From a virus (taxonomy: Duplodnaviria > Caudoviricetes), in the IMG/VR virus record IMGVR_UViG_3300005581_000015, positions 1 through 59,090 of that record: a stretch of DNA of 59,090 nt. One strand, 5' to 3'. A model generated the notes under the pieces. That model was not told where the DNA came from. It saw only the letters and a list, made by a program, of their open reading frames with translations, and searched no databases. Each line of letters starts with the position of its first letter. Position 1 is the stretch's first letter. The translations under genes were made by a program, and so were the position numbers. Positions 18,823-29,178 of the stretch are shown here, piece by piece.

Positions 18823-20844
18823 ATGACATTTTTTTACGACTTAAACAAAAGACTAGACGGCATACGTGCCACTCCTGAAACTACTCATAAACAATTAAAT
18901 GAGCGTGACATGAGCAAGAGCATGGACGAAAGTGCGTTCCAAGCAGCCATTGGTAAAAAGAAATATGGTGACGAAGGCATGAAAGCCTTGCAAAAAGCTG
19001 GACGCAATCACTCCAGCGACAAGACCATGGATGCCATCCGTAACAGATTTGACAAGTACGATGAAAGTCAGGGCATGGCCGATGAAGGAACTGCATTTAC
19101 CAAGGCTGTAGTTGATGCCAAACGAGACGGTATTCAACCTGGTGAGAAAATCAACGTTGGCGGAAAAGAATATCCAGTCAAAGAAGCTGCAGGCGCAGTT
19201 GACTTTGACAAAGTACTAGATGCTATTGCCGCAATGTATGGCAATGACATGTGGCAAAATGATGCCATGCAGGATCTGGCCAATGATCTTGCACAGGCTG
19301 GACCAACTGATCGCGAACTAGATTTTATCATTGCCAAAGGTCGGTTACCAAAGCGTCTAGCTAACACACAATTCTCAGCAGGTGACAATGTTCAATTTGG
19401 CGAAGCCAGTGCTCCAATGACTGCCAAGCAAAAATCATTTGCCGCATTGGCTGAACCCAAAGACAAAATCACATTTGCTGACAAAATTGCTGGCGCCAAA
19501 AAAGAAGTTGACGAAATGCTAGGCGATGTAGCCGCAGAAGCAATGAAGAAAGCACTGGGTGGCGGCATGGGTCGCAGTGCTGAAATGGAAGAAAAAGAAG
19601 ATAACAGTCCATTCACAGCACACAAGCGTCCACGCACAGAACGACCCAAAGTCGGCAGCGTTGAGCGTGGGGCATTGCATGACATTGAACACACCGCAAC
19701 CGGTCGCAAAGTAACACGTAGAGTTGATCCCAACACCGGACACAGTGTTGGTGCCGATGATGACACTCCTGCCACTGGAGAAAAGCGTGGTAAAGGACGT
19801 CCAAAGAAAGCTGGCGGCCCAAATCAAGAGCGTGTAACTGCCAAGAGTCGTAAAACAGATCGCACAGCACATGGTCAGGATGGCTTTAAGAAAGATAAAA
19901 AAGTCAAAGAAAGTGACGAGTACGGTGATGAAGGCGACATGGCCAAAGATGACTTGCGTAGTATTGCCAAGGCAGCCGCAGAACTTAATTCATTGTTAAA
20001 CGACCATGATGATTTACCAGAGTGGGTTCAGAGCAAAATTACCAAAGCTCTAGACTACATCAACACCAGTAACCAATACATGGACCAGGAAAAATCTGAT
20101 GACGACACCGGCGATGATGTTGTAATGGGTGGCGATGAAGAGCTAGACGAAAAAGCCACAAGCAAAGCACAACGTAGAGCTGCCGCAATTGCCATGCATG
20201 CTCCCAAAGGCAAACTTCAGGGCGCCAGCAAAGAAATGAGCAAGATGCCCAAGAAAGAACTAGAGAAGTTTGCCGGCACAAAAGAAAAGGGCCTGCCTAA
20301 CAAGAAAGAAAAAACTCAAGAAACAACCTCTGCAGGTTCAGTGGCAACAAGCACTGCCGCTCCAAAGGCAGGCAAAGGCGGAGTACAGTTTGGTAAAGGC
20401 ATCTATGAAAGTCTAGATCGCCAGCTAAAACAACAACTCAACGAAGAAATGAGTATCAACATGAGTATTGGCACAGACGGCCGTAAAAGCATAACTGTCA
20501 CAGCCTCAGATGAAGATGCCGACCAACTAGCGCAGATTTTGAATCTAGCAGGTTTGCAAGGTCATGATCATGGCGCAGAAGCATGCCCTTCATGCGGCCA
20601 AGCCCCATGTGGTTGCGCTGAAGTTGTTGATGAGAATGCACCAGACTATCCACAGAACATGGGCCAAACGTCAGATACTAACTTTATGACCAAGACCAAT
20701 GCTGGCGGCTTAAACAAAGAAAAATATACTGGACAGTCAACTATTCCGGTATTGGCAAGCCAAGGTGATAGACAACATGCTTACGAGAATGTTGAACTAG
20801 AGCGTAGCTTGTTTAAATTGTATCAGGAAGTTAAATCAAAATGA
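18823..20844 (+). CDS. Large charged modular head/core protein with DUF3008-like module and AT-hook-like motif
   Basis: Repeated [LVM]-x-E sites (LNE, MDE, VKE, VDE, MEE, LDE), KRGKGRPKK, a KATSKAQRRAA...ELEKFAGTKEKGLP module and CPSCGQAPCGC. Confidence 0.55.
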   Translation: MTFFYDLNKRLDGIRATPETTHKQLNERDMSKSMDESAFQAAIGKKKYGDEGMKALQKAGRNHSSDKTMDAIRNRFDKYDESQGMADEGTAFTKAVVDAKRDGIQPGEKINVGGKEYPVKEAAGAVDFDKVLDAIAAMYGNDMWQNDAMQDLANDLAQAGPTDRELDFIIAKGRLPKRLANTQFSAGDNVQFGEASAPMTAKQKSFAALAEPKDKITFADKIAGAKKEVDEMLGDVAAEAMKKALGGGMGRSAEMEEKEDNSPFTAHKRPRTERPKVGSVERGALHDIEHTATGRKVTRRVDPNTGHSVGADDDTPATGEKRGKGRPKKAGGPNQERVTAKSRKTDRTAHGQDGFKKDKKVKESDEYGDEGDMAKDDLRSIAKAAAELNSLLNDHDDLPEWVQSKITKALDYINTSNQYMDQEKSDDDTGDDVVMGGDEELDEKATSKAQRRAAAIAMHAPKGKLQGASKEMSKMPKKELEKFAGTKEKGLPNKKEKTQETTSAGSVATSTAAPKAGKGGVQFGKGIYESLDRQLKQQLNEEMSINMSIGTDGRKSITVTASDEDADQLAQILNLAGLQGHDHGAEACPSCGQAPCGCAEVVDENAPDYPQNMGQTSDTNFMTKTNAGGLNKEKYTGQSTIPVLASQGDRQHAYENVELERSLFKLYQEVKSK

Positions 20845-22875: not shown

Positions 22876-23313
22876 ATGAAAAAACTCTTCCTGCTCTTAC
22901 TTGTATTACCCGTGCTGGCCTTTGCACAACCCAAACAACGTCCAGGCGTCACATATGATGCTGTGATCACCAGAGTCATAGACGGTGACACAGTGGGCAT
23001 TCAAGCCACATGGCTGCCAGCACCGCTCAAACCAGAACTCAGTGTTCGTGTGTACGGTGTAGACACTCCTGAAAAAGGACATCGTGCGCAGTGTGCCAGT
23101 GAAGCACAAAGAGGTGAAGCAGCCTCGGCATTTACCAAGCAACTGATTGCCAACAGTCAAAAACGACAGATTGTGCTCATGGACTGGGACAAGTATGGCG
23201 GACGTGTGCTTGGCGACGTCATCCTCAACGGCGTTAGTCTGCGCCAACAGTTAATCGCCAATGGTTTTGCTCGCGAATATTACGGCGAAGCGAAAACCAG
23301 TTGGTGTCAATAA
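22876..23313 (+). CDS. Staphylococcal nuclease-like (SNase/thermonuclease) with signal peptide
   Basis: VIDGDTV, VRVYGVDTPE, DKYGGRVLG and LIANGFA motifs; Sec-type leader MKKLFLLLLVLPVLAFA. Confidence 0.9.
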   Translation: MKKLFLLLLVLPVLAFAQPKQRPGVTYDAVITRVIDGDTVGIQATWLPAPLKPELSVRVYGVDTPEKGHRAQCASEAQRGEAASAFTKQLIANSQKRQIVLMDWDKYGGRVLGDVILNGVSLRQQLIANGFAREYYGEAKTSWCQ

Positions 23314-23404
23314 CACACCTTAGGACCGGTACTTGTTACCGAACAGTGTGAGGCGGCTGCTGCCTTGGGTAATCCGATTCGCTACCGGAACCCCTGAAGT
23401 GAGC
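23314..23404 (+). ncRNA. Candidate structured non-coding RNA element
   Basis: GC-rich intergenic block with nested stems CACAC/GTGTG, CGGTA/TACCG, AGGC/GCCT, GGGT/ACCC and TCCG/CGGA, a possible TTCGCT/AGTGAG pseudoknot, and a following U-tract. Confidence 0.5.
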
Positions 23405-23442
23405 TTTTTCTTTTGACCAAACACTTTTAGTTAAATATTGGT

Positions 23443-25011
23443 ATGGCCGCAAAAGACGAAATCACATTAATCAAATCCCCGCATAAAAAACAGTTGTACT
23501 CAGACATAGAATTACAACAGTTTGCAAAGTGTGCTGACCCTGTGACAGGCCCACTGTATTTCATGGACAATTTTTTCTATATACAACATCCTACCAAAGG
23601 TAGAATGTTGTATCACCCGTTTGATTATCAACGTCGACTTGTGGAAACATATCACAACTATCGATTCAGCATTTCAATGATGCCGCGGCAAACTGGTAAG
23701 TCAACATCGGCAGCTGGATATTTGTTATGGTATGCAATGTTTGTACCAGACAGCACAATCTTGGTTGCCGCACACAAGTACACTGGATCACAAGAGATTA
23801 TGCAACGCATTCGTTATGCGTATGAAAGTGTGCCAGACCATATCAGAGCCGGAGTCACAAGTTACAACAAAGGCAATTTAGATTTTGACAATGGCAGTCG
23901 TATTGTTTCAGCAACTACCACAGAAAATACCGGTCGTGGTATGAGTATATCATTGCTGTACGCAGACGAGTTTGCATTTGTACGACCCACCATTGCCACA
24001 GAATTCTGGACCTCTATCAGCCCCACGTTGGCCACTGGTGGTAAAGCAATTATTACCTCAACACCCAACAGCGACGAGGATCAGTTTGCACTGTTATGGA
24101 AAGGTGCCAACAAGTGTGAAGATGCATATGGCAACCCCACTGAATTAGGTATCAACGGATTTAAATCATATCGTAGTTACTGGAAAGAACACCCGGACCG
24201 TGATGACAAATGGGCAGTTGAACAACGTGCACAATTGGGCGAAGATCGTTTTAGACGAGAAATGGACTGCGAGTTCATTATCAATGACGAAACACTAATT
24301 GCACCTACTACATTAATTGACTTAGCTGGTGAAGACCCAGCTTACAGAATTGGTCAAGTACGTTGGTACAAAAAACCCGAACGAGATCGCATTTATGTTG
24401 TGGCCTTGGATCCCAGCCTTGGCACCGGCGGCGATCCGGCTGCTATACAAATATTCGAAGCCAACACCACAGTACAGATAGGCGAATGGCGACATAATAA
24501 AACCACAATTCCTGAGCAAATACGCATACTGGCCGACATTGTTGCACACATCAACGAAGTTGTTAAAAATCCACAGAACGTGTATTTCAGTGTGGAAAAC
24601 AACACCATTGGCGAGGCCGCACTGATATCCATTGCTGAGTACGGAGAAGAAAACATACAGGGCTATTTCCTCAGCGAAATTGGTGGCACCAGTGGCCGCA
24701 GGTATCGCAAAGGATTTAACACAGCACACAAGAGCAAACTTGCGGCCTGTTCTAAATTCAAAAACTTAATTGAATCACGTCGAATGACCATCAACAGCCG
24801 GCCGTTAATCAGCGAGCTTAAAACCTTTGTGGCACATGGCCTTAGCTATGCGGCCAAACCCGGGGAAACTGACGACTTAGTAATGTCTACATTGTTGGCT
24901 GTGCGTATGCTACAAACCCTGCAAAACTACCACAGTGATCTCAATGCACAGATCAAAGACCACAGCGACATGCTAATTGAGCCCATGCCCTTTATTAGTA
25001 TAATGCGATAA
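23443..25011 (+). CDS. terL: Terminase large subunit (T4 gp17-like)
   Basis: FDYQ Q-motif, PRQTGKST Walker A, LLYADEFAF Walker B, ITSTPN, FRREMDCEF, VALDPSLG, VENN and DDLVMS motifs. Confidence 0.95.
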   Translation: MAAKDEITLIKSPHKKQLYSDIELQQFAKCADPVTGPLYFMDNFFYIQHPTKGRMLYHPFDYQRRLVETYHNYRFSISMMPRQTGKSTSAAGYLLWYAMFVPDSTILVAAHKYTGSQEIMQRIRYAYESVPDHIRAGVTSYNKGNLDFDNGSRIVSATTTENTGRGMSISLLYADEFAFVRPTIATEFWTSISPTLATGGKAIITSTPNSDEDQFALLWKGANKCEDAYGNPTELGINGFKSYRSYWKEHPDRDDKWAVEQRAQLGEDRFRREMDCEFIINDETLIAPTTLIDLAGEDPAYRIGQVRWYKKPERDRIYVVALDPSLGTGGDPAAIQIFEANTTVQIGEWRHNKTTIPEQIRILADIVAHINEVVKNPQNVYFSVENNTIGEAALISIAEYGEENIQGYFLSEIGGTSGRRYRKGFNTAHKSKLAACSKFKNLIESRRMTINSRPLISELKTFVAHGLSYAAKPGETDDLVMSTLLAVRMLQTLQNYHSDLNAQIKDHSDMLIEPMPFISIMR

Positions 25012-25021
25012 ATAAAAAACT

Positions 25022-27385
25022 ATGGCAACAAATACACCTTCAGCACAATTACACGATTTATTGGTCACGCATGACTTTGATGTAGAATCAAAAGATGCCA
25101 AACGCCCTAACACCACACCTGCGCCCGAAGATGCAGACATGTTTGTGTTTGATTTTGAGGCCAACGGAAACAACTATGGCACTGTGGTGACCTTATTTGA
25201 CAAAGACGGAACATTGAATTTATTCTACGGTGACAACGTGGGAAAATCCATGGAACCTGCAGATAAAAAAGAATGGTACGATTTTCTTTACCAGCTCACC
25301 ATGTTTGCCAAGCGCAACTGCCCGTCTTTTGAAATGCAAAACATCAGTAGATTGAAGTACACTCTCAAAGGCATTTCGGCAATCAACGAAGGATTGTTTG
25401 AAGGCTACTATGGAAACAAGAAAGTCAGCTATGCCGGCGAGCCCACAGAAGCACGATTGATGATCAAACACAATCGTCAACTGGGTGAAAATGACAAGCG
25501 TTATCGTTATGTGGAAAGTTTGTTTATTGAAACTGCAGATGATCAAAGATTTAGACTACCATTTACAAATCTAGCTGGTGGCCGCGCCATGCTAGAGCAT
25601 GTACGCCAGGGTGGCAAGCCCTACGACATTCGTGGTTGCCATATTGCAGAAATGGTGGAAGATGCCAAAGTACTAAGCAGATTTAATCGTGCTAAACAAA
25701 ATAAGATTTTTGAAGGCGAAACCAGCGAGTTAGTTGAAGCCAGCACAGCCTACTACGAAAGTGTACGCCACACTATCAAAAGTCTAGGCAACGGACGTGG
25801 ATATCAAAAGTACTTTGAGTCCTGGAGTCCAGCGCAGATCAACGAAACTGACACCTTAGTTGACTCAATAAAAGAAATGTTTATTGAACAAACACTAGAC
25901 TCTAGAATTGAGCAGGCCCTGCCAATACTGGCCAAAATAAGACAAAGAGAGACCAATATGAAAGAAGCACAAGTATTTGAAAACTGGGTCAACCAGGTAT
26001 GTGAGGGAACTTGGAGTTTGCCAGACGATCCTGACCAACGAGCTAAATTACAAAAGCTAATGAGCCAACCGTTGCTGGTTGGTCCAGACGCAACCAATGC
26101 CACTGAACAGTTGTATGACCTAGTGGGTGATGATCAGTTGTTTGATATCTTGGGCGACATAGCTGACCAGGATGGTGGCCCAGACATGAACGCCTGGGAT
26201 GATCCGCGTGTGATGGACCGCATGTATGAATTGGGCATTGATATGGCCCAGCCAGATGGTAATCAGGAGCAAGACATTGACCCTAGACAAGATCTAGATG
26301 AGTTGTCTCCTCAAACACTGGCAAGTTATGTTAAAAAATCCAATACTGATGCTAGAGATAGACTTCGTCAAGATCCAAAAAATCAATTTAAAAAAGCTGA
26401 AAAAAGAACCGCTGGTATAGGTCAAGCCATTGGCAAAATTCGTGCCACAATGGAACCTGCTACTAAACAGCAAGGTGTAGAGGAAGGTGCCATGAAGCAC
26501 CAAATGCATGCTGATGCAGACCGCATGAGTCGTGAACAATTTTGTGACAAGTATGGCAACGAGAACGGAGAATTCTGGGATAACATAAATGGCGAACTCA
26601 ACGAGGGCCAAGAAGACAGCGCAGTAGCCAGTGCTCTTACACGTCGCATCATGAGTCAACGTTTGGATTTGCTAAAGAAATATGGTCCAGTAAAAGTTAC
26701 TCAAGCAATTGATTCTGCCGCAGAATTTTTTGGTGACGTAGAAGAAATTGGTAGCAGTGACCTGAATGCCTACATGCAATATGTTGAAAAAGAACTAGGC
26801 GGCATGGCTGAGCAAGGTATAGATGAAGCTGATATGAACCGTAGAGGATTCTTAAAAGGACTTGGCGCTGCCGCAGTGGCCGGAGCCGCTGGTGTAGCAA
26901 GTGCTGATCAACAACAAGATTTAGGCAATGGCTTTGTTTTAACAACTATCAATGTTGCTGGACACACAGTTAAAGCAGTATTAGACACTGAAAGCAACAT
27001 AAGTGTTACTCTAAATCGTGGTACTAATGGATCTGCTATTATCAGAAGTCAAGCACGTTTTCTTTCAGTCAAGGATGGAAAAATTGTAGGCGCAAGCATG
27101 GATGTTGGACCGGCCACCACTGCCGCAATGAAAAAAGCTGGACTGTTAGAAAATGTAGAGCACGGTATGGAGGAAGCAATTGATCCAACAAATCCCAGAG
27201 ACTACGAGATTCCAGCTTACCAACGCAAGGAAAAAGGTATGCCACCCCTGACCCCCAGCGACATCGAAGACAAAGACAACGCCAGTCCAACCACACAACA
27301 AGGTCTAGACACACTAAAAAACAAATTGGGCATTAGAGAAAACAAAGATTTGACTAGAATTAAGCAACTTCTTCAAAAGATATAA
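25022..27385 (+). CDS. Large late protein whose C-terminal half is a string of short modules separated by x-x-E sites
   Basis: TAAATA at 25009-25014; LDE, GVEE, LNE, GMAE, GIDE, LLE, GMEE and IRE linkers; internal RRGFLK Tat-like motif. Confidence 0.7.
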   Translation: MATNTPSAQLHDLLVTHDFDVESKDAKRPNTTPAPEDADMFVFDFEANGNNYGTVVTLFDKDGTLNLFYGDNVGKSMEPADKKEWYDFLYQLTMFAKRNCPSFEMQNISRLKYTLKGISAINEGLFEGYYGNKKVSYAGEPTEARLMIKHNRQLGENDKRYRYVESLFIETADDQRFRLPFTNLAGGRAMLEHVRQGGKPYDIRGCHIAEMVEDAKVLSRFNRAKQNKIFEGETSELVEASTAYYESVRHTIKSLGNGRGYQKYFESWSPAQINETDTLVDSIKEMFIEQTLDSRIEQALPILAKIRQRETNMKEAQVFENWVNQVCEGTWSLPDDPDQRAKLQKLMSQPLLVGPDATNATEQLYDLVGDDQLFDILGDIADQDGGPDMNAWDDPRVMDRMYELGIDMAQPDGNQEQDIDPRQDLDELSPQTLASYVKKSNTDARDRLRQDPKNQFKKAEKRTAGIGQAIGKIRATMEPATKQQGVEEGAMKHQMHADADRMSREQFCDKYGNENGEFWDNINGELNEGQEDSAVASALTRRIMSQRLDLLKKYGPVKVTQAIDSAAEFFGDVEEIGSSDLNAYMQYVEKELGGMAEQGIDEADMNRRGFLKGLGAAAVAGAAGVASADQQQDLGNGFVLTTINVAGHTVKAVLDTESNISVTLNRGTNGSAIIRSQARFLSVKDGKIVGASMDVGPATTAAMKKAGLLENVEHGMEEAIDPTNPRDYEIPAYQRKEKGMPPLTPSDIEDKDNASPTTQQGLDTLKNKLGIRENKDLTRIKQLLQKI

Positions 27386-27421
27386 ATAATCATTGACACA
27401 AAGCAAAAATGCGTGTACACT
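27381..27421 (+). promoter_or_regulatory. Tandem late (TATAAATA) and sigma70 (TTGACA-N17-TACACT) promoters of the SSB gene
   Basis: TATAAATA at 27381-27388; TTGACA at 27393-27398; TACACT at 27416-27421. Confidence 0.7.
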
Positions 27422-27517
27422 TAGTCTGTGTGTGCATTTTTGCCTAGTGTATTAGGCATCGTGTTCGTAAGAGCACACACAAAGGCTATATTAGGCATAT
27501 TTAAAGGAGAAATCATT

Positions 27518-28510
27518 ATGGCATCATTAGCAGACATTCGTGCAAAACTACAAGCCGCTGAAAGCAACAAAGGCGGCAACTCACAAACAGGTGGCGACAA
27601 CGCTATCTATCCACACTGGAACATCGACGAAGGTACAAGCGCATCAGTTCGCTTTTTACCCGATGGCAACTCAAAAAATACGTTCTTCTGGGTTGAACGT
27701 GCAATGATCAAACTTCCGTTTAACGGCATCAAGGGTGAATCTGAAAGCAAACAAGTTCAGGTACAAGTCCCTTGCGTTGAAATGTGGGGCGAGGCTTGCC
27801 CGGTCCTAGCAGAAGTGCGCACTTGGTTCAAAGACAAGAGCCTGGAAGACATGGGTCGCAAGTACTGGAAGAAACGTAGCTACGTGTTCCAAGGCTTTGT
27901 ACGTGAGAATCCTCTTGCTGACGACAAGTCACCAGAAAACCCAATTCGTAGATTCATTATTGGTCCACAAATTTTCCAGACTATCAAAGGCGCTTTGATG
28001 GATCCTGAGTTGGAAGAATCACCAACAGACTTGGTGCGTGGTTTAGATTTCCGTGTTACTAAAACCAGTAAAGGCGGATATGCTGACTACAGCACAAGTA
28101 AATGGGCACGTAAAGAAAGCCCGCTCACCGAAGCTGAAGCAATGGCACTTGAAAAGCATGGTTTGTATAACTTGAATGAGTTCTTGCCCAAGAAACCCGG
28201 CGCAGAAGAATTGCGTGTCATCAAAGAAATGTTTGAAGCCAGCGTAGATGGTCAACCATACGACACCGAGCGTTGGGGATCCTACTACCGTCCAGCTGGT
28301 GTAAGTGCACCTGCAGGTGGTTCAAGCAACAGCACATCAGCTCCAACACTCAAGGTGGCCACACCATCTCCAGTCACTGAAGATGACATCCCACCATTTG
28401 ATGTAGATGAACCAGCAGTGGCATCAACACCAGTTGCTAAACCAGCTGGCGACACTAAAAAAGCTGATGACATTTTGGCTATGATTCGAGCTCGACAAAA
28501 CAAGTCGTAA
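27518..28510 (+). CDS. Single-stranded DNA-binding protein (T4 gp32-like)
   Basis: AAGGAGA SD before ATG 27518; VRFLPDG, CVEMWGEACPV, YWKKRSY, GLDFRVTKTSKGGYADYSTSKW and a low-complexity acidic tail. Confidence 0.85.
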   Translation: MASLADIRAKLQAAESNKGGNSQTGGDNAIYPHWNIDEGTSASVRFLPDGNSKNTFFWVERAMIKLPFNGIKGESESKQVQVQVPCVEMWGEACPVLAEVRTWFKDKSLEDMGRKYWKKRSYVFQGFVRENPLADDKSPENPIRRFIIGPQIFQTIKGALMDPELEESPTDLVRGLDFRVTKTSKGGYADYSTSKWARKESPLTEAEAMALEKHGLYNLNEFLPKKPGAEELRVIKEMFEASVDGQPYDTERWGSYYRPAGVSAPAGGSSNSTSAPTLKVATPSPVTEDDIPPFDVDEPAVASTPVAKPAGDTKKADDILAMIRARQNKS

Positions 28511-28518
28511 TCTAATCA

Positions 28519-29178
28519 ATGTTGAGTCAAATTGATAAAACAATTTGTCCTGACAGTTGTGAGGTGGTAGAGATACCATCCTCACAACAACATGTGTTTT
28601 TAATTTTCAAAAATGCTAGTTCTTCTATACGTATGGAATGCGAACGCCAGTCAGGAAAACACTACAATGCCAGCAATGTAACAGAACTTGCAGACATTGA
28701 TGTTTATCTACGTCAGCCTCGTGCTAGATATGTGTCTGGAGTCAATACATTTTTACAAAATTTACTCAAAGAAAATTCCAAGTTAGATCGACAAACAATT
28801 TTGTTCTTTGTTAAACAATTTCATTTCTTAAATCGTCATTATCTTCCGCAGTTTCACTGGTTGTTGAACTTAAACAGATTTAACAATCATTGCAGATTGA
28901 CACTGCGCGATGTTGATACTGTTGCAACAATTACAGATTATTATGATCAGCCTGTTGAAATATTAGCTGATGATCATTTTGAAGATTTGTTACAAATTGA
29001 TAATCGGGTTGAGTTATGGTTTTTCTTAGATAACATACTTAGAGAATTAATTGGAAAAACGTTGACATTTGCAGAAATATTAGAATACATTAAACACACA
29101 CAGCCTGACACATTTGATATTATTTTCAAAGACCAATTAGCATTATTACAGCCAGCGTATGTATTGTCCAAGACTTGA
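28519..29178 (+). CDS. Sulfotransferase-like protein
   Basis: IFKNASSSI (5'-PSB-like), LRQPRARYVSG (3'-PB-like) and NRHYLPQ resemble Sulfotransfer_2 motifs. Confidence 0.5.
   Translation: MLSQIDKTICPDSCEVVEIPSSQQHVFLIFKNASSSIRMECERQSGKHYNASNVTELADIDVYLRQPRARYVSGVNTFLQNLLKENSKLDRQTILFFVKQFHFLNRHYLPQFHWLLNLNRFNNHCRLTLRDVDTVATITDYYDQPVEILADDHFEDLLQIDNRVELWFFLDNILRELIGKTLTFAEILEYIKHTQPDTFDIIFKDQLALLQPAYVLSKT

Follow-up and report, generated by a model that had tools for sequence, protein, structure and literature searches.

A twin-arginine-type signal behind a predicted prohead-protease site within a modular virion-type protein of an uncultured jumbo phage

The twin-arginine translocation (Tat) signal peptides of bacteria combine the consensus (S/T)-R-R-x-F-L-K with a weakly hydrophobic h-region and an AxA motif, and they normally stand at the N terminus. 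A segment of this kind lies near residue 605 of the 787-residue protein P0001, encoded on the plus strand at positions 25022 to 27385 of the IMG/VR virus record IMGVR_UViG_3300005581_000015, and the question raised by this locus is how an export signal could act from such a position. The window, by which we mean the whole stretch of DNA that was analyzed, is this linear record of 59,090 bases, with 41.9% G+C and an estimated genome completeness of 17%. Judged from the list of open reading frames (ORFs), its translation, the family phrog_13484, and its homologues, P0001 is a modular virion-type protein. The answer that we put forward, on grounds of sequence comparison, is that P0001 may be packaged into the phage head and cut at IDE|A, and that this cut would expose the Tat signal on a fragment delivered together with the DNA. 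We regard the chances of this proposal as evenly balanced.

The internal signal and the site before it

Residues 598 to 632 of P0001 read QGIDEAD-MNRRGFLKGLGAAAVAGAAGVASA-DQQQ within the wider context ...GMAEQGIDEAD-MNRRGFLKGLGAAAVAGAAGVASA-DQQQDLGNGF..., where MNRRGFLKGLGAAAVAGAAGVASA comprises residues 605 to 628. An earlier note on this DNA, made from the letters and their ORFs, had quoted the text accurately: the motif does follow GIDE near residue 605, ATG 26834 is the codon of M605, and LLE ends at E710 (nucleotide 27151). The Tat-type signal peptide as a whole extends from A603 to A628 (ADMNRRGFLKGLGAAAVAGAAGVASA; 26828 to 26905, plus strand) and was scored with two family models. Pfam TAT_signal (PF10518) matches residues 604 to 624 with 22.3 bits (E 1.2e-4), just below its gathering score of 22.7, and NCBIfam TIGR01409, with a cut-off of 16.7 bits, gives 19.3 bits for the whole protein and 21.9 bits for a fragment that starts at M605. 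The n-region N606-R-R-G-F-L-K612 agrees with the Tat consensus, with N before the twin arginines R607-R608, whose codons (26840 to 26845, plus strand) were located by translation and six-frame scan. It is followed, as in the h-region and c-region of a Tat signal, by the G/A-rich stretch GLGAAAVAGAAGV and then by A-S-A|D. The AxA signal-peptidase-type site, read from the sequence, is A626-S627-A628 (26897 to 26905, plus strand), with a predicted cut before D629. What is missing is the N-terminal location expected of a Tat signal: since the segment begins at residue 603 to 605 of 787, it would become N-terminal only after a cut at E602.

When all six frames of the window were scanned for RR.F[LIVM] plus one additional residue out of a permissive set, three places matched. 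Only the one in P0001 lies in a long ORF without a nearby stop, the other two having stops in their immediate context, and the stretch behind it is the most hydrophobic of the three. Family counts given here refer to 121 proteins, namely P0001 and the best 120 of its 2584 homologues. Within this set, three proteins carry a Tat-like motif, namely P0001, P0002, and P0062 (residue 438, behind SLEEVD), and the same three exceed the TIGR01409 cut-off. The two homologues P0002 and P0062 contain the 9-mer RRGFLKGLG too, at internal positions that differ from that in P0001, and this recurrence, together with the presence of the surrounding cassette in 50 cluster representatives (see below), argues that the motif is more than chance. 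Overall, we think it rather probable that the segment works as a Tat-type export signal in some setting.

Directly before the signal, I600-D601-E602 (26819 to 26827, plus strand) forms a predicted prohead-protease site with the cut after E602, read from the sequence and judged by a pattern that recurs in related proteins. When motif instances from all sources were pooled and duplicates removed, 48 distinct instances remained, and a Glu stands 3 to 5 residues before the first Arg in 46 of them. The earlier note had suggested a search for the motif behind Glu linkers in further phage proteins, and the outcome is positive. Two residues before that Glu there is V (19 instances), L (14), or I (7), so that 40/48 show the T4 prohead-protease pattern, and the signal begins 2 to 4 residues behind the Glu site. 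A strict AxA was found 14 to 38 residues after the first Arg in 38/48, at actual positions 17 to 36 and mostly at 22 or 26. The h-region averages 38% Ala and 32% Gly over the 48 instances, with a mean Kyte-Doolittle value of 1.18; a basic residue (K or R) is found between +18 and +30 in 35/48, and the residue before RR is S, N, D, or T in 47/48. The linkers have diverged into the classes V/I-A/D-E-A-D-M-N/S-RR, L-E-E-I/V-D-RR, L-E-E-D-L-S-RR, and V-D-E-D-I-S-RR, and the hydrophobic-x-Glu pattern is kept in every one of them. In a 15-row alignment (A4), RRGFL and the next two glycines are invariant. Most of the signals (37/48) are internal, at a depth of more than 40 residues and as far in as residue 942.

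A real Tat signal could also act in the producing cell, where internal initiation at ATG 26834 or late proteolysis would free it, for example for lysis timing or phage exclusion. This would suit the Met that precedes (N/S/T/G)RR in the E-x-D-M class (21/48 instances) and the carriers L052, L070, and L081, whose signals lie 12 to 13 residues from the start and could be used uncut. The Met is not retained, however, in the LEEID and LEEDLS classes, and the 37 signals deep inside their proteins speak against such a route. Internal initiation at ATG 26834, one of two ways in which the earlier note had imagined the signal to be unmasked, is not supported as a general route: 27/48 instances are without the E-x-D-M form, the LEEID-RR and LEEDLS-RR linkers have I, L, or V or nothing in place of the Met, and only a weak GAAG lies upstream of ATG 26834. 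Two further points on this alternative, one on either side, come from the cargo and from the protease that the sites would need, and are given with them.

The in-frame cassette and its beta domain

The signal is part of an in-frame cassette of linker, Tat-type signal, and beta domain that spans residues 598 to 715 (26813 to 27166, plus strand), as delimited by alignment A1 and blastp segments. In A1, which holds P0001 and its 8 closest relatives, the 118-residue insert is present in P0001 and P0002 only. The 7 other homologues read ...YVEKELGGMA|EAIDPxNPRDY... and continue with the C-terminal module directly after residue 597. The unbroken frame and the origin of P0002 from a separate contig show that the insert is real and not an assembly artefact. 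A fusion through sequencing error was rejected on the same grounds, the independent contig being built alike. Inteins begin with Cys, Ser, or Thr and end in His-Asn followed by Cys, Ser, or Thr; the insert begins Q-G-I-D-E, ends ...H-G-M-E-E|A, and has no splicing blocks, and an intein was rejected. Near-repeated linkers, GGMAE (26804 to 26818) and HGMEE (27155 to 27169), flank the cassette, and recombination between linker codons may be the route by which modules are swapped.

A full HMMER search with residues 598 to 715 against 1.84 billion cluster representatives returned 50 representatives at E<=1e-3, 36 of them at E<=1e-10. The match lies at varied positions within uncultured-phage proteins of 123 to 918 residues, and the P0001 core is present in only 2/50 of these carriers. 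An RR motif occurs in 25/50, with 27 instances in total, and Pfam TAT_signal matches 20/50 at E<=0.01. The two proteins with two motifs each are P0159 (residues 39 and 270) and P0167 (41 and 227), and no hydrophobic region follows the first motif of P0167. In IMG/VR, the linker plus signal was confirmed at 21 loci among 206 stretches matching [NSD]RRGFL[KR]G[LMI], the beta domain is encoded at 40 loci, and several cassette or signal loci sit on contigs of 260 to 524 kb. A related-locus search that used P0001 alone found 6 loci. A homologue search with residues 590 to 632 gave 3 matches, a low number because a 43-residue query cannot reach significance among 5.8 billion sequences. Judged by sequence, residues 598 to 715 are a mobile cassette.

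The beta domain itself (D629 to E710, about 82 residues; DLGNGF...AVLDTES...GPAT..KKAGLLE; 26906 to 27151, plus strand) was modelled with AlphaFold2 (AF2). A model of residues 598 to 715, built on a 26-row alignment, has six strands and one helix. Its signal part has a predicted local distance difference test (pLDDT) score below 50, and about residues 632 to 707 reach block means of 87 to 93, with pLDDT in the domain mostly above 90. The beta-rich domain of some 80 residues that the earlier note had read from the letters was therefore recovered in the model. Fold searches of the domain against PDB and BFVD gave no match at E<=1e-3, a profile of the cassette found one chance-level match (E 0.51) among PDB sequences, and two pattern scans of 185,579 species genomes, which reach close relatives only, found no relative. 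An Atlas lead to a retropepsin-like aspartic protease (0.86 to 0.87) was rejected, the motif being DT(E/Q)S and not D-T-G, and neither the PDB fold search (E<=1e-3) nor the PDB sequence search gave it any backing. The beta domain is small and, as far as these searches reach, phage-specific.

A set of 65 distinct occurrences that was collected by way of the beta domain alone is not circular with regard to the arginines. An upstream G/A-rich segment is present in 28 of them, with RR in 22 and lacking it in 6, and 37 have no such segment; KR or RK variants were not seen among the 65. Three of the 6 segments without RR (P0146, P0157, and L038) end in A-H-A just before the beta domain, that of L038 following a VAE site, and these segments may represent a different type of signal occupying that position. 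In P0139, a decayed signal, SRGINKGIGE, with its h-region lost, stands at about residues 105 to 125 before an intact beta domain.

These observations bear on two further explanations. In the first, the segment would be a membrane-active Gly/Ala-rich helix of the glycine-zipper type that serves the capsid or DNA ejection, and its Tat likeness would have no function. Gly-zipper segments do occur in the family: P0013, P0035, P0045, P0102, and others carry an RR-less Gly-zipper, GLAGAALGGLAGAALTKSPGGA, at the very cassette site, in the context YVEKxLxGM[AT]E (for example ...YVEKALSGMAE-GLAGAALGGLAGAALTKSPGGA), hydrophobic segments are found in 33/121 family proteins (a few of them in the conserved core), P0118 bears PF13488, and the six beta-domain occurrences with a G/A segment but no RR would fit as well. 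A membrane helix, however, needs neither an invariant RRGFL(K/R)G nor an AxA 22 to 26 residues on, nor envelope-enzyme cargo, and we consider this explanation improbable. In the second, a gene for an exported protein would have been captured whole, its signal being carried along unused. The Met preceding NRR does resemble a former start codon, and the near-repeated linkers on either side of the cassette would suit a capture. Yet the signal also moves on its own, with no beta domain, and stands before at least 5 other cargo types, and all three of its parts are intact across divergent linkers. No host donor is in sight, since the two limited-reach scans of species genomes found no beta domain, and the decayed copy in P0139 indicates that unused copies do erode. 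A mere relic is in our estimate quite improbable, and it is as an export signal uncovered by cleavage that we discuss the segment further.

Cargo, head processing, and the proposed route

Cargo was called by Pfam scans of the carrier proteins. Behind the signal, TonB_2 follows in P0162 (signal 493 to 513, TonB_2 530 to 605) and in L065 (658 to 676 and 768 to 845), LysM and SLT follow in L070 (signal 10 to 30), and LysM and Glyco_hydro_19 (GH19) follow in L052 (signal 10 to 30); in none of these four was a domain called before the signal. In L067 (signal 389 to 406), Peptidase_M48 stands behind and DUF6934 before. In L080 (signal 771 to 791), LysM (811 to 852) and SLT (921 to 969) stand behind, and a dCMP deaminase (162 to 258) and ParB_N (638 to 708) stand before. 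Further cargo comprises the domains DUF6321, GP88, and DUF5872. Every recognizable domain behind the signal is envelope-acting, and the only recognizable nucleic-acid-type domains stand before it; of the indirect arguments that the signal means export, this domain order is the strongest. The L080 ORF (L080:311-3511 in IMG/VR) is a polyprotein-like frame of 1067 residues in which the signal separates cytoplasm-type from wall-type modules. Several carriers share a Cys-rich module, WSQKYKSSINCSHPKGFSQKAHCAGKKK, which stands at the N terminus of the L009/L010 ORF, at residues 401 to 428 of P0162, and at the N terminus of P0173.

An exposed signal might also block the host Tat translocon rather than being exported, which the earlier note had named as its second option. 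The conserved signal is compatible with blockage, without pointing to it specifically, but AxA in 38/48 instances and enzyme cargo that needs the cell wall fit export better, and we consider blockage very unlikely. The carriers that combine LysM with GH19 or SLT do resemble exported endolysins, which favors action of the signal in the producing cell, the first of the alternatives introduced above. Its opposing point concerns the protease.

In translations of the T4 record, the internal proteins IPII and IPIII start with MKTYQEFIAE|A. According to PMC9026906, the first 10 residues of IPIII are enough for head loading, its residues 8 and 10 control processing, the T4 protease acts inside the prohead, and packaged fusion proteins reach the infected cell (PMC9026906). 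The same paper describes T4 and giant-phage proteases as cutting C-terminal to Glu after a short motif, and states that in phiKZ/SPN3US-type phages many head proteins are cut after Glu by a gp21-related protease, with propeptides that hold several sites (PMC9026906). The conserved (V/L/I)xE would need such a protease, and its action inside the T4 prohead, as described there, counts against release of the signal in the producing cell (PMC9026906). With this added to the evidence from the linker classes, we judge action in the producing cell to be unlikely.

Several features of P0001 and other carriers recall the T4 arrangement. Both predicted sites beside the cargo of P0001, I600-D-E602|A and L708-L-E710|N, have a hydrophobic P3 and a P1 Glu, the second lying at the end of the beta domain. 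Further [LIV]xE sites are found in the variable region at E427, E488, E528, and E575. In an AF2 model of residues 1 to 597 (mean pLDDT 70.5), the segments 410 to 428, 433 to 488, and 524 to 531 score below 50, and they contain the sites at 427, 488, and 528. The L070 ORF starts MRASEFIAE-DLS-RRGFLRG, and many carriers start MKITDIITE, MKINDFLNE, MNFQDLYQKIRNIEE, or similar. A capsid-tag pattern, defined as two hydrophobic residues, x, and Glu within the first 16 residues, was found in 21/85 carriers, compared with a shuffle mean of 4.5 (maximum 10) and with 3/54 window ORFs, which is an enrichment and not a rule. Peptidase_S77, the family of T4 gp21, is above its cut-off in 4/5 related jumbo contigs, the fifth contig being 76% complete. 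The P0001 core is likewise present in 4/5 of these contigs, with 51% identity in one that is 99% complete (G002). The cut after GIDE, the other way of unmasking considered in the earlier note, is thereby favored on comparative grounds, by the (V/L/I)-x-E pattern, the AxA, the envelope-type cargo, and the gp21-type protease of the related contigs taken together.

The route that we propose would run as follows. The pieces of P0001 would be joined by acidic linkers that carry T4-type (V/L/I)-x-E prohead-protease sites. With its signal masked at residue 605, the precursor would remain cytoplasmic in the producing cell and enter the prohead, and this masking within the precursor would explain its escape from export in that cell. 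A gp21-type protease would then cut after E602 and probably also after E710 (LLE|N), leaving a fragment of about 12 kDa whose new N terminus, ADMNRRGFLKG..., would be a standard Tat signal. This fragment would enter the next host along with the DNA, the host Tat system would export it, and signal peptidase I would cut ASA|D and free the beta domain in the periplasm. We infer the steps named here (cleavage, packaging, head location, ejection, and Tat dependence), as well as the role of the beta domain, from the comparisons above.

Several points weigh against this route. The Pfam TAT_signal score falls 0.4 bit under the gathering threshold, and the route presumes a Tat system in the host. The 48 instances share descent and were gathered partly with an RR-containing pattern, so that their agreement overstates independent selection and their RR conservation is partly circular. 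Among the 65 beta-domain occurrences, the 37 without any signal-like segment mean that the domain is not bound to the periplasm, and P0165 has PG_binding_1 without a preceding signal. The signals of L052, L070, and L081, being so close to the start, could work uncut and in the producing cell. In P0001 itself, [LIV]xE is not strongly enriched (17 found vs 10.4 expected), and the N terminus (MATNTPSAQLHDLLV; start MATNTPSAQLHDLLVTHDF) does not show the T4-like capsid-targeting pattern, which most of the 85 carriers also do not match. A gp21-type protease was not found in the window, which means little at 17% completeness.

Were the proposal to hold beyond P0001, giant T4-related phages might use a three-part address code for head-carried proteins, comprising a capsid tag or carrier, a (V/L/I)xE cut, and a hidden Tat signal, an extension that we offer tentatively and hold to be slightly doubtful. 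Under such a code, the Tat system of the new host might move wall-binding enzymes, TonB-like domains, and the beta domain to the periplasm, for which we would likewise put the chances somewhat short of even. Tat signals, processing of the T4 type, and the delivery of proteins from the head are each known, and what would be new is their combination; in a search of the full-text literature, with subscription journals largely outside its reach, no description of Tat signals in phage head or ejected proteins was found. If true, this would amount to a protease-activated "pro-signal peptide" and a new route of phage effectors to the cell envelope, in which a precursor keeps its signal peptide silent until a viral protease activates it. 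Ready-made periplasmic proteins would be in place within moments of infection, ahead of phage gene expression, and could exclude rival phages, remodel the wall, or disturb TonB-dependent uptake. One more compartment would come within reach of injected phage proteins. The combination of site, RR signal, and AxA would provide a sequence rule for finding such cargo in metagenomes, and also a design principle for periplasmic protein delivery by T4-type packaging vectors.

The carrier protein, its setting, and related systems

The P0001 gene consists of a conserved N-terminal core (residues 1 to 411; 25022 to 26254, plus strand), delimited by blastp segments against the 120 homologues, a variable linker and module region (412 to 597; 26255 to 26812, plus strand), whose modules vary between close homologues, the cassette, and a C-terminal module (716 to 787 with the stop; 27167 to 27385, plus strand) seen in alignment A1. 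The 2584 homologues are those at E<=1e-3, and the best 120 of them have the N-terminal 50 to 76% in common and are divergent behind. Besides the Tat signal, the sole family match of P0001 is phrog_13484, "virion structural protein" (E 7.6e-8, residues 123 to 268). A tblastn search found 14 phage records, all of them jumbo, with about 26 to 30% identity over 19 to 24% of the query; 11 are PA5oct-like Pseudomonas phages, and Erwinia, Sinorhizobium, and Vibrio phages account for one each. In PA5oct the homologue is gp278, which is annotated as a virion structural protein, whose record carries an ESI-MS/MS note and whose gene lies two genes downstream of that for the terminase large subunit (TerL); it matches the P0001 core with about 27% identity over residues 131 to 317 (tblastn). 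By core homology, P0001 belongs to the phrog_13484 family of jumbo-phage virion proteins, and the virion annotation of this distant homologue is the one piece of evidence for its possible presence in the head. A fold search with the core model against PDB gave no match at E<=1e-3.

In the window, the gene lies directly 3' of that for a T4-type TerL (23443 to 25011, plus strand; Pfam Terminase_6N and Terminase_6C; phrog_36964, E 7e-113), and the next gene encodes a gp32-like single-strand DNA-binding protein. Genes for tail sheath, tail tube, head closure, and adaptor proteins are located upstream. The description of P0001 as a late protein, made in the earlier note, agrees with this position after TerL and among tail sheath, tail tube, and head-closure genes. 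The region is the structural region of a large myovirus, and the source is an uncultured jumbo myovirus of lytic type. Megablast of window positions 23000 to 29000 against phage records matched nothing. Two other ORFs of the region were noted: a highly charged, low-complexity ORF of 673 residues (18823 to 20844, plus strand; DUF3008 match at 445 to 495) within the structural region, and a staphylococcal-nuclease-like ORF (22876 to 23313, plus strand; SNase, E 3e-12) just 5' of the terminase gene.

Compared with bacterial Tat signals as described by PF10518 and TIGR01409, the segment in P0001 shares S/T/N-R-R-x-F-L-K, the weak G/A-rich h-region, and AxA, and basic residues are often found near the c-region in both. 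It differs in lying 604 residues inside a primary product, and in a lytic-type jumbo phage. Internal Tat signals are also known from dual-targeted membrane proteins such as actinobacterial Rieske proteins, where they function without cleavage, serving as a late transmembrane segment that follows helices inserted by Sec. P0001 resembles these in having a twin-arginine motif away from the N terminus of the polypeptide, but it has no preceding membrane helices, and a protease-type site stands directly before its signal.

A close parallel to the proposed processing is offered by the T4 proteins IPI, IPII, IPIII, and Alt. Like these, several carriers have MKTYQEFIAE-type N-terminal tags, sites with P3 hydrophobic and P1 Glu, and variable, swappable cargo, and a gp21-family protease is encoded in genomes related to that of the P0001 phage. 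Unlike the T4 internal proteins, the carriers string their cargo modules together in long polyprotein-like genes, with processing that is here inferred, one module starts with an export signal, the proposed destination would be the periplasm and not the cytoplasm, and P0001 is without a clear T4-type tag. With the head proteins of phiKZ/SPN3US-type phages, P0001 would share Glu-directed cuts by a gp21-related protease, which for P0001 are predicted only. Those phages have a different protein set to which no sequence relation of P0001 was found, and export signals are not mentioned in the consulted passages of PMC9026906. PA5oct gp278, representing phrog_13484, has a homologous N-terminal core and, like P0001, a gene near that for TerL, but it is 496 residues long, and its tblastn match touches no part of the P0001 cassette.

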